Assembly (NCBI GenBank): GCA_947478175.1 | Contig: CANJUQ010000009.1 | Coordinates: 169 to 64,168, forward strand | DNA length: 64,000 nucleotides | Origin: Thiotrichales bacterium | Lineage (GTDB): Bacteria > Pseudomonadota > Gammaproteobacteria > Francisellales > CACEW01 | Reading direction: 5' to 3' | In this document: positions 44,965 to 45,864 of the stretch, piece after piece | Layout: every line of letters begins with the position of its first letter | How positions within the stretch are numbered: position 1 is the stretch's first letter | Notes under the pieces: generated by a model | Told to the model about the DNA's origin: nothing | What the model saw: the letters and a program-made list of their open reading frames with translations, nothing else | Database searches by the model: none | Position numbers and translations under genes: made by a program

Positions 44965-45119
44965 GTAGGGGCGCAATTCATTGCGCCCTCTGATCTGATG
45001 AACACGCTTTCTGATCTGACAAACGCGCCCTCTGATCTAATAAATGCATCTCAAGATATGGGGATAAATAAGAGTGCAATAGATAATAAAGATGAGGGCG
45101 CAATGAATTACGCCCCTAC
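44965..45119. repeat. REP inverted doublet (REPIN-like) abutting the RAYT start
   Basis: GTAGGGGCGCAATTCATTGCGCCCTC (44965-44990) and GAGGGCGCAATGAATTACGCCCCTAC (45094-45119) lie in inverted orientation. The doublet ends 11 nt before ATG 45131. Confidence 0.8.
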
Positions 45120-45130
45120 GGTATAACATC

Positions 45131-45751
45131 ATGAGCGACCGTATGTTTTACCATCGTCGTTCAATTCGACTGAAAGGCTATGATTATTCTCAGGCTGGTT
45201 CTTATTTTATTACGATATGTACTTATTACCGGGAATGTTTATTTGGAACTATTTCGAACAATGAAATGCAGTTAAATAATTGTGGAAAAATTGTGGAAAC
45301 TAGTTGGTTAAATATTCCCAATTATTTTTCAAATGTTGTTTTAGATAAATTTATTGTCATGCCCAATCATCTTCATGGGATTCTTTCAATAAAACCCACT
45401 GTAGGGGCGCAATTCATTGCGCCCTCTGATCTGATAAACGCATCCCCGGATATGGGGATAAATAAGAGTGCAATAGATAATAAACACGAGGGCGCAATAG
45501 ATAATAAAGACGAGGGCGCAATGAATTGCGCCCCTACGGTAGGTCATATAATCCGTGCCTTTAAAGCACGTACAACGAGCACTGTGAATCGTCAAAAAGG
45601 GAGCTATGGAATGCCGATTTGGCAACGTAATTACTATGAGAATATTGTTCGAGATGAAGCTGCTCTGGATAAAATTCGACAATATATTGAGTGTAACCCA
45701 GGAAAATGGGCCTTTGATAAAGATAATCCCAATAGTTCTATCTATTCATGA
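45131..45751 (+). CDS. REP-associated tyrosine transposase (RAYT, IS200/IS605 Y1 family) with in-frame REP-doublet insert
   Basis: The N-terminus RRSIRLKGYDYSQAGSYFITICT, HUH motif MPNHLHGIL and Tyr motif WQRNYYENIVRDE...YIECNP are typical of RAYT/COG1943. Residues 91-136 are encoded by a REP doublet. Confidence 0.85.
   Translation: MSDRMFYHRRSIRLKGYDYSQAGSYFITICTYYRECLFGTISNNEMQLNNCGKIVETSWLNIPNYFSNVVLDKFIVMPNHLHGILSIKPTVGAQFIAPSDLINASPDMGINKSAIDNKHEGAIDNKDEGAMNCAPTVGHIIRAFKARTTSTVNRQKGSYGMPIWQRNYYENIVRDEAALDKIRQYIECNPGKWAFDKDNPNSSIYS
45401..45537. repeat. REP inverted doublet inside the RAYT coding sequence
   Basis: The 5' REP is identical to 44965-44990. The perfect inverse GAGGGCGCAATGAATTGCGCCCCTAC lies at 45512-45537. 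The spacer core GATATGGGGATAAATAAGAGTGCAATAGATAATAAA is shared with the upstream doublet. Confidence 0.85.
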
Positions 45752-45864
45752 CACCCTAAGTTGGCTGGTTTAAATTTTTTAAAACCGCTACACATTCATG
45801 ACATACCCCTAGCCCTCTGATAAGATTCGCGCCCGTTGTTTATTCACAATGGAATCCCCAAAAA

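Follow-up and report, generated by a model that had tools for sequence, protein, structure and literature searches.

Why would a transposase-derived gene carry, within its own reading frame, the kind of DNA hairpin on which its product is expected to act? We considered this question for a gene in a 64,000-nucleotide (nt) stretch of DNA from an uncultured Thiotrichales bacterium (GenBank assembly GCA_947478175.1, contig CANJUQ010000009.1, positions 169 to 64,168), hereafter the window. The gene (45131-45751, + strand) encodes a 206-residue tyrosine transposase of the kind linked to repetitive extragenic palindromes (REPs), known as RAYT or TnpA_REP, a Y1 HUH transposase of the subclass 2.4 or group 4 type, and is the only RAYT copy in the window, where it lies between recR and pyrG. 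A gene with its substrate in frame offers a compact test bed for the cellular role of RAYTs and REPs and for the way in which REPs are copied. We conclude that the locus is very probably a REPtron of the TnpA_REP subclass 2.4 (RAYT group 4) type, in which the beta3/alphaC loop of the enzyme is encoded by its own GTAG-footed REP doublet and the internal copy would be live.

The REP at this locus is GTAG-footed, reading GTAGGGGCGCAATTCATTGCGCCC(TC), with the foot followed by a hairpin of the form GGGCGCAA-TTCA-TTGCGCCC. Direct reading and repeat computation placed it at four sites arranged as two inverted doublets. The upstream unit (44964-45123, + strand) consists of a REP doublet and its spacer, is bounded as T-GTAG...CTAC-GGTA, and is a near-copy of the intragenic unit. 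Its 5' REP, GTAGGGGCGCAATTCATTGCGCCCTC, carries the GTAG foot and the hairpin (44965-44990, + strand), and its inverted 3' REP (45094-45119, - strand) has one stem mismatch (96% complementary) and ends 11 nt before the RAYT ATG at 45131. The intragenic doublet (45401-45537, + strand) is in frame and occupies residues 91-136, in the beta3/alphaC loop; with its outer bases, the duplicated unit spans 45400-45541 and has the same borders. Its 5' REP (45401-45426, + strand) is identical to the upstream 5' REP and codes VGAQFIAP, and its 3' REP (45512-45537, - strand) is the 100% inverse of the internal 5' REP and codes EGAMNCAPT. The two copies are 436 nt apart and one of them is translated. An earlier reading of the window, the first-pass annotation, had given the same positions for the doublets, the same 11-nt distance to the ATG of a 206-residue open reading frame (ORF), the same in-frame peptides, and about 160 residues left after removal of the insert, all of which proved correct.

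Both doublets have a spacer in common (91% identity over 80 nt, 98% over the first 40 nt, and 92% over the last 53 nt), and the duplicated unit is therefore the whole doublet. The spacers differ in their tandem units, as previously noted: three 21-nt units upstream (44984-45046, + strand; starts at 44984, 45005, and 45026, spaced 21 and 21 nt from start to start), which contain the half-REP tail CGCCCTCTGATCT..., and two 24-nt units inside the gene (45465-45512, + strand; starts at 45465 and 45489, spacing 24), which consist of the half-REP GAGGGCGCAAT and spacer. Only these four sites matched the 21-nt REP core in the 64 kb when up to three mismatches were allowed, relative to a dinucleotide-shuffle expectation of 0.00. 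Folding, which the first-pass annotation had proposed, returned stable hairpins of ~30 bp for both doublets as single-stranded DNA, at -42.5 kcal/mol (z -8.9) for the internal doublet and -33.6 kcal/mol (z -5.4) for the upstream one. As RNA, the internal doublet reached -76 kcal/mol (z -9.7). Each doublet is a REPIN (REP doublet forming a hairpin), that is, two inverted REPs and a spacer that make one hairpin and were duplicated as a unit.

The upstream REPIN would be a recent copy of the intragenic one, because it shares the host-like spacer and keeps a stop-free frame outside the gene. The 21- and 24-nt half-REP stutters may stem from slippage or abortive processing at the hairpins. Since the upstream REPIN has no stops in the VGAQFIAP frame, public records annotate a 57-residue "gene" over it at 44953-45126 (+ strand), at 9811-9984 in locus L081 and 811-984 in locus L171; this call is almost certainly spurious. 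TnpA_REP enzymes cleave single-stranded REP DNA at C|T beside the hairpin, and a CT dinucleotide directly precedes the internal GTAG (45399-45400) and is one base off at the upstream GTAG (44962-44963). The first-pass annotation also described a degenerate REP downstream of the gene. A candidate decayed remnant does exist there (45812-45834, + strand, 87% repeat match), but its exact match covers only 10 nt (GCCCTCTGAT) and 28 of 500 shuffles scored equally in local alignment, making it a borderline candidate that does not clearly exceed chance.

We then asked how the protein accommodates the doublet. The 206-residue product scored 27.8 bits against Pfam PF01797 (Y1_Tnp), for which the cutoff is 23, and deleting residues 91-136 raised the score to 34.1 bits over profile positions 40-119, from HUH to the tyrosine. 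The best NCBIfam model was NF047646 (REP_Tyr_transpos) at 55.7 bits, below its curated cutoff of 80 and split into two stretches; with the insert deleted the score was 67 bits, still below 80, and the match became one continuous run of residues 19-146 to profile positions 6-133 of 146. Removing the insert restores a continuous profile match, which identifies residues 91-136 as inserted with respect to Y1/RAYT profiles, as the earlier reading had expected. In an AlphaFold model built on 85 homologues, the core had a predicted local distance difference test (pLDDT) score above 90, and residues ~88-136, between a strand (80-87) and a helix (137-156), had a pLDDT of 50-60 and no secondary structure. 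The model thus predicts that the 46-residue insert is a disordered, dispensable surface loop of the protein, which fits the tolerated loop that the first-pass annotation had offered as an alternative.

The top 30 Foldseek matches in the PDB were all IS200/IS605 TnpA proteins or 4ER8, the E. coli YafM REPtron transposase (subclass 2.2 or group 2), with probability 1.00. The HUH motif is encoded at 45368-45376 (+ strand; H80-L81-H82). The first-pass annotation had taken NYYENIVRDE as the tyrosine motif, which the alignment to 4ER8 does not bear out: the WQRNYYENIVR segment (W164-R174, 45620-45652, + strand) aligns to W94-R104 of the E. coli TnpA_REP, its GTAG-binding segment (PMC6006769 Fig. S11). 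The catalytic tyrosine is instead predicted, from the family-profile alignment, to be Y185 in YIECNP (45683-45685, + strand), aligned to Y115 of 4ER8 and invariant in 85 homologues; Y115F is a catalytically dead mutant of the E. coli enzyme (PMC8266576). HUH and Y185 are invariant or nearly so among these homologues, and the insert still lies between them, although the motif itself had been mislabeled. The window protein resembles YafM in fold (Foldseek E 1.5e-4), in the alignment of HUH, the W-Q...E-H..R GTAG-binding segment, and the catalytic tyrosine, and in its association with REPs whose GTAG-footed hairpins are the substrate in E. coli. However, their sequence similarity is marginal (E 1.4e-4 with the family profile), no REP lies inside the E. 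coli gene, and the REPs of E. coli have bulged stems and number in the hundreds. The insert is predicted to be the enzyme's own type of substrate for binding and cleavage.

Although the first-pass annotation suggested that in-frame REPs might be a general and undescribed property of RAYT genes, the trait was published in 2018, and the window is a typical, intact example of a described subclass. Quentin, Siguier, Chandler, and Fichant (BMC Genomics 19:475, PMC6006769) defined TnpA_REP subclass 2.4, which is RAYT group 4 of Bertels, Gallie, and Rainey 2017 (PMC6006769), by the motifs NH[IFV]H, WQ, and YIxNNP, a length of ~194 residues, and a distribution over Cyanobacteria, Bacteroidetes, and a range of further phyla. 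The hallmark of the subclass is the presence of in-frame REPs in the beta3/alphaC loop, between HuH and Y, and its REP table includes GTAGGGGC... REPs (PMC6006769). Searching the literature for peptides such as VGAQFIAP and GAMNRAPT gave no match, the trait being described in the RAYT/TnpA_REP papers. The later papers examined, PMC8266576 among them, do not address the function of intragenic REPs.

The window shares with subclass 2.4 a Y1/HUH core of ~190-200 residues with WQ and YIxNNP-type motifs and no extra C-terminal domain, and a variable, frame-keeping REP insertion in the beta3/alphaC loop. It also shares GT[AG]G REPs of the long canonical or double-foot kind, whose stem base has three G-C pairs and which flank the gene as well, and the subclass is likewise scattered over many phyla. 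Its WQ is as in Table 1 of PMC6006769, whereas its other two motifs each differ by one conservative residue (NHLH versus the published NH[IFV]H, and YIECNP versus YIxNNP). The window further departs from the subclass, which is found mainly in Cyanobacteria and Bacteroidetes, in its host, which is uncultured with 40% G+C and a gammaproteobacterial-like gene neighborhood, and in its insert, which is a full REPIN with an 85-nt spacer that is duplicated, spacer included, just upstream.

Comparison with more distant systems places the locus between several known arrangements. Classical REPINs also consist of two inverted REPs with a short spacer that form one long hairpin, but they are extragenic and number tens to hundreds per genome, whereas the 64 kb here contain two, one of them inside a gene. 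The IS200/IS605 TnpA enzymes (IS608, ISDra2, IS200) share the Y1 fold and recognize single-stranded hairpins with a 5' guide tetranucleotide. In contrast to the present locus, insertion sequences have their gene within a mobile element delimited by the hairpins, which are never located in the ORF; the RAYT gene here has one copy in the 64 kb, between recR and pyrG. Rickettsia palindromic elements (RPEs) and intragenic REPs of other genes (Di Nocera et al. 2013, PMC3733652) are likewise in-frame palindromic insertions tolerated as extra peptide, except that they occur in unrelated host genes at varied sites, whereas here the host gene encodes the REP's own enzyme and the site is fixed across the family.

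To place the insert in its family, we fetched 160 homologous loci with their DNA (80 from species genomes and 80 from metagenomes, many of them metagenome-assembled genomes, each with ±10 kb); site counts refer to the 154 genes, the window's own counted, that have HUH and WQ motifs. Relatives formed 27,105 representative clusters at E below 1e-3. The closest, at ~50% identity, were from Nitrosomonadales, Gallionella, Methylohalobius, Desulfosoma, Thermodesulfovibrionales, Chloroflexota, and Binatia, and the subclass motifs were present in the best relatives (40-57% identity), whose sources included Cyanobacteria, Chloroflexota, Nitrospirota, and similar groups. A GT[AG]GGG or CCC[TC]AC foot was present between HUH and WQ in 147 of the 154 genes (95%), at a density of 10.4 feet per kb versus 0.87 per kb in the rest of the gene. 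Exact inverted repeats of at least 14 nt occurred at the site in 83 genes and of at least 20 nt in 59, as compared to a single gene for a control segment. The commonest form was a 28-nt perfect palindrome, GTAGGGGC-N12-GCCCCTAC. Using a strict footed-hairpin detector, we found an internal hairpin in 99 of 117 genes (85%), but one within 300 nt upstream in only 45 (38%) and within 300 nt downstream in 45 (38%), with a background of 0.24 per kb.

The peptides encoded by these inserts raise the possibility that VGAQFIAP and GAMNxAPT form a functional protein motif whose DNA palindromy is incidental. VGAQFIAP...GAMNRAPT was found at the matching site in nearly all of the closest relatives, with spacers of 0-80 residues, and such peptides recur in many homologues at ~50% identity. 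In more distant relatives, however, the 5' and 3' peptides change jointly as reverse complements (e.g., VGARPASP/GEAGLAPT, or a single double-foot VGAGFKPAPT), and the 147 genes contain 101 distinct REP 16-mers with complementarity kept in each. One DNA is read in two frames that give unrelated peptides, as with the single palindrome that encodes VGARHAVPL in L003 and GRGTACRAPT in L041. Among 160 5' feet, 127 read GTA-GGG (V-G), 33 read xGT-AGG (R-G), and none fell in the TAG frame, which bears out the suggestion in the first-pass annotation that inserts starting V-G-A occur at this site in other phyla. Genes sharing a palindrome had proteins 46-70% identical and third-codon identity of 30-65% (identical residues; near saturation), yet their 28 nt were 100% identical, and third codon positions were all fixed within the palindrome only. 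The internal REP is thus conserved at the level of DNA and not of peptide, and the recurrent peptides are a by-product. The first-pass annotation had regarded conservation of the insert as protein sequence as contrary to its proposal: the peptides do recur, but the cause is conservation of the DNA palindrome. Together with the low pLDDT and lack of secondary structure in the loop, these results effectively refute a protein motif, which we regard as very improbable.

Stem composition bears on whether the insert is maintained or merely carried. The RAYT gene has 32-39% G+C, the REPIN spacer 39%, and the whole window 40%, with all four REP arms GC-rich and intact. The insert is kept as an intact REP: its arms remain GC-rich and perfectly complementary, in contrast to the spacer and the rest of the gene, whose composition has drifted to the low G+C of the host. 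In one account, the insert nevertheless has no role and its DNA is under no selection: local REP transposition hits the RAYT gene most often, and only in-frame hits in a permissive loop survive. This is essentially the reading of Quentin et al. 2018 (PMC6006769). It draws on the disordered, peripheral position of the loop (the AlphaFold model and PMC6006769 Fig. S7B), loop lengths from ~0 to 80 residues, turnover of REP identity between close relatives, an intact gene without an internal REP on a Leptolinea plasmid, and in-frame REP or RPE insertions in unrelated genes (PMC3733652). Such neutrality is harder to reconcile with 95% occupancy across an old, multi-phylum family, internal hairpins at 85% versus 38% per flank, palindromes that stay perfect despite saturated synonymous sites, and GC-rich arms that persist in an AT-rich gene; moreover, re-insertion at the same codon after clean deletion would require a targeting signal. 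We consider it unlikely that the insert is a passenger of this kind.

Turnover at the site was nonetheless evident. The insert's REP often matches flanking REPs, the kind of match for which the first-pass annotation had proposed a survey of homologues: of 101 loci with enough flank, 36 have a further copy of the internal 14-mer within 500 nt of the gene, and 19 have one farther away. No pairs below 45% protein identity shared the 14-mer, as compared to 38% of pairs at 75-95% identity, suggesting that REP type tracks RAYT protein clade only partly. One pair of 81% identical genes (L044/L151) carries different REPs in different frames, and another pair (L082/L087) has an inverted REP interior. 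These comparisons point to the insert site as a hot spot of turnover whose evolution is concerted with that of nearby REPs. The internal REP would then be a live member of the local REP population and not a fossil, with RAYT cleavage and strand transfer, or gene conversion between REPs, homogenizing or replacing it.

Extension of the insert palindrome past the feet was mostly at chance level, reaching at least 1 nt in 27 of 87 cases versus 21.8 expected. A small tail of 4 cases reached at least 4 nt versus 0.3 expected, which may be a trace of fold-back copying. Extensions of 4-8 nt into the coding flanks occurred in L120, L039, L049, and L019 (e.g., CGGCGCAT|GTAG...CTAC|ATGCGCCG). Half-REP stutters (e.g., GTTGGGGCAACC two to three times or GTAGGGGCACGTTGCACG three times) were seen inside the inserts of L092/L096, L091, L086, L023, L051, and the window. 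Half-REP unit number differed between genes with identical cores, always by multiples of 3 nt (L092/L096). Foot variants (GTAG versus GTTG) showed no covariation with the WQRNYYEHIIR segment, a weak test given that the loci were gathered by that motif.

We tentatively propose, while holding it somewhat short of an even bet, that in subclass-2.4 REPtrons the intragenic REP is more than a tolerated insertion: it would be the core that selection preserves, the one copy retained when flanking copies are lost, with its perfect palindrome selected because the RAYT acts on it in cis, either as a self-limiting operator or nick site or as a seed or reference copy of its REP population. If this proposal is true, a transposase-derived gene would keep its own substrate in its reading frame by necessity. 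A cis substrate inside the ORF and another 11 nt from its start might keep RAYT output low or self-limited, and might keep enzyme and REP genetically inseparable; both ideas are speculative, although we favor them.

One form of action in cis is dedicated autoregulation, the main idea of the first-pass annotation, in which the RAYT binds or nicks its own REPs, or REPIN hairpins in the mRNA throttle translation or stability. This mechanism does not exclude the others. It would suit the great stability of the hairpins and the position of the upstream REPIN, whose end is 11 nt from the ATG. Where relatives have an upstream footed hairpin (45 of 117 loci), the nearest one ends a median of ~39 nt from the start (range 6-122 nt). 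IS200, the closest insertion sequence relative, limits tnpA expression by mRNA stem-loops near the tnpA start. REPs near coding ends have also been reported to affect translation (Liang et al. 2015, as cited in PMC5581495). Nevertheless, a REP near the start codon is common among relatives but not general, and only 38% of them carry an upstream REP within 300 nt. On the sense strand, G.T and A.C stem mismatches were balanced (29 versus 29), giving no wobble signature of mRNA structure. Scans for sigma-70 promoters and terminators returned counts at shuffle level, and one promoter-like site 5' of the upstream REPIN (44905-44933) is not evidence. An Rfam scan of 44000-46500 gave no match beyond a meaningless sub-threshold miRNA match. 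Autoregulation is therefore a credible but doubtful explanation.

A further account treats the intragenic REP as a protected master copy that seeds the REPs and REPINs of the genome, such that enzyme and substrate persist together. In keeping with it, no other REP of the REPtron is as constant as the internal copy, and the upstream REPIN of the window looks derived from the internal one (shared spacer, open frame). An identical REP 24-mer is present inside three other RAYT genes, and three unrelated IMG/VR contigs (56-62% G+C) that lack a nearby RAYT carry it between genes, as a REP or doublet. These occurrences establish it as a genuine REP type that is widespread, in hosts of 40% and ~60% G+C. 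Dispersal from the gene is less apparent: at distances above 500 nt from the gene, 1.3 Mb of flank contained only 56 exact copies of the 14-mer, as compared to 349 footed hairpins, whatever their stem, at distances above 300 nt in a somewhat different 1.5-Mb set, meaning that most dispersed footed hairpins near these genes have other stems. The differing internal REPs of close relatives imply import from outside, and the Leptolinea plasmid is rich in REPs with none inside the gene. A seeding role is quite unlikely in our estimation. Passenger insertion, autoregulation, and seeding cannot be separated by sequence alone.

Several points weigh against our main reading of the locus, in addition to the balanced mismatches and the chance-level promoter and terminator scans. 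Seven of the 154 genes have no foot at the site, and the complete 212-kb plasmid of Leptolinea sp. HRD-7 (AP024711.1) carries an apparently intact family member without an internal REP; the internal REP is not obligatory in the family. Conserved peptide patterns served to gather the loci, which were ranked by how closely they resemble the window protein, pairs of loci are phylogenetically non-independent, and the palindrome-sharing groups were chosen by identity. The first-pass annotation had counted absence of this REP elsewhere in the genome as a point against its proposal. Within the 64 kb the exact REP is indeed confined to this locus, being absent from the other ~63 kb, but four GTAG-footed hairpins with other stems are present.

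The REP-less Leptolinea gene (hrd7_34280; 181817-183165, L165-L170) is annotated as hypothetical. It is flanked by four REPs within 420 nt upstream and three downstream, of the GTAGGGG[CT]GGA... type, with approximately eleven more of the class on the replicon. Five related REPs are clustered at 56188-56472 on the same plasmid.

Could the locus instead be a decaying pseudogene or an assembly artefact made by its repeats? Two details might suggest so. In ENA ERZ27277814, contig k141_2712905 has a T at position 45419, its sole difference from the window in 20.6 kb, which changes Ala97 to Ser in the stem of the internal 5' REP and breaks the palindrome. In addition, a short-read Logan contig (ERR3761218, L172) starts at 45082, breaking inside the spacer of the upstream REPIN, and the duplicated doublet is therefore enough to fragment assemblies at this locus. 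Against these, the G of the window is found at 45419 in three other public assemblies (including NCBI/ENA ERZ28612979 scaffold_4190 and Logan ERR3761218), all exact matches, and the locus is otherwise the same across independent assemblies, three with G and one with T. The first-pass annotation had named a disrupted ORF as a sign of decay; the ORF is intact, with every family-invariant residue present in the window protein, and the AlphaFold core is confident. We reject a pseudogene or artefact as hardly credible.

The family counts (95% occupancy, retention of internal over flanking copies, and identity across saturated sites) add to the published description of the subclass and turn it into a testable claim, namely active maintenance of the internal REP. 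Synonymous recoding can destroy the palindrome with no change to the protein, and the loop can be deleted without touching the catalytic core, so effects at the DNA level and the protein level are separable. There are also consequences for annotation, as REPs yield recurrent pseudo-peptides (VGAQFIAP, GAMNRAPT), spurious small ORFs, over-extended gene calls, and breaks in metagenome contigs. In many database homologues, N- or C-terminal extensions arise by translation of flanking REPs (GAMNRAPT, VGAQFIAP, GRDESRPY).

Beyond the RAYT locus, the window is rich in related hairpins, with eight GTAG-footed hairpins in the 64 kb versus 0.2 expected. Those with other stems include a solitary REP of a third stem type, GTAGGGGCGAATCTTGTATTCGCCC (20421-20445, - strand), in the intergenic space separating the membrane-fusion gene of an RND efflux system from its pump gene, and GTAGGGGCAGCCGGCGGGCTGCGC (54425-54448, + strand) at the end of ftsB (DivIC family). 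The TAG in the foot of the latter appears to be the ftsB stop codon (ORF end 54428). A second inverted doublet, GTAGGGGCGGACCTGCGTGTCCGCCC ... GGGCGGACACACAGGTCCGCCCCTAC (56265-56290/56300-56325), lies between nlpD and recJ and is in frame (VGADLRVRP...GGHTGPPLRV) within a 157-residue ORF (56097-56570, + strand) that has no Pfam match. This ORF may be a spurious call or a genuine gene into which a REPIN was inserted. Between the cyo operon and dnaX, a few kb upstream of the RAYT gene, the window also contains a RES-domain/Xre-MbcA-ParS toxin-antitoxin pair (40445-41399; 5768-6767 in L081).

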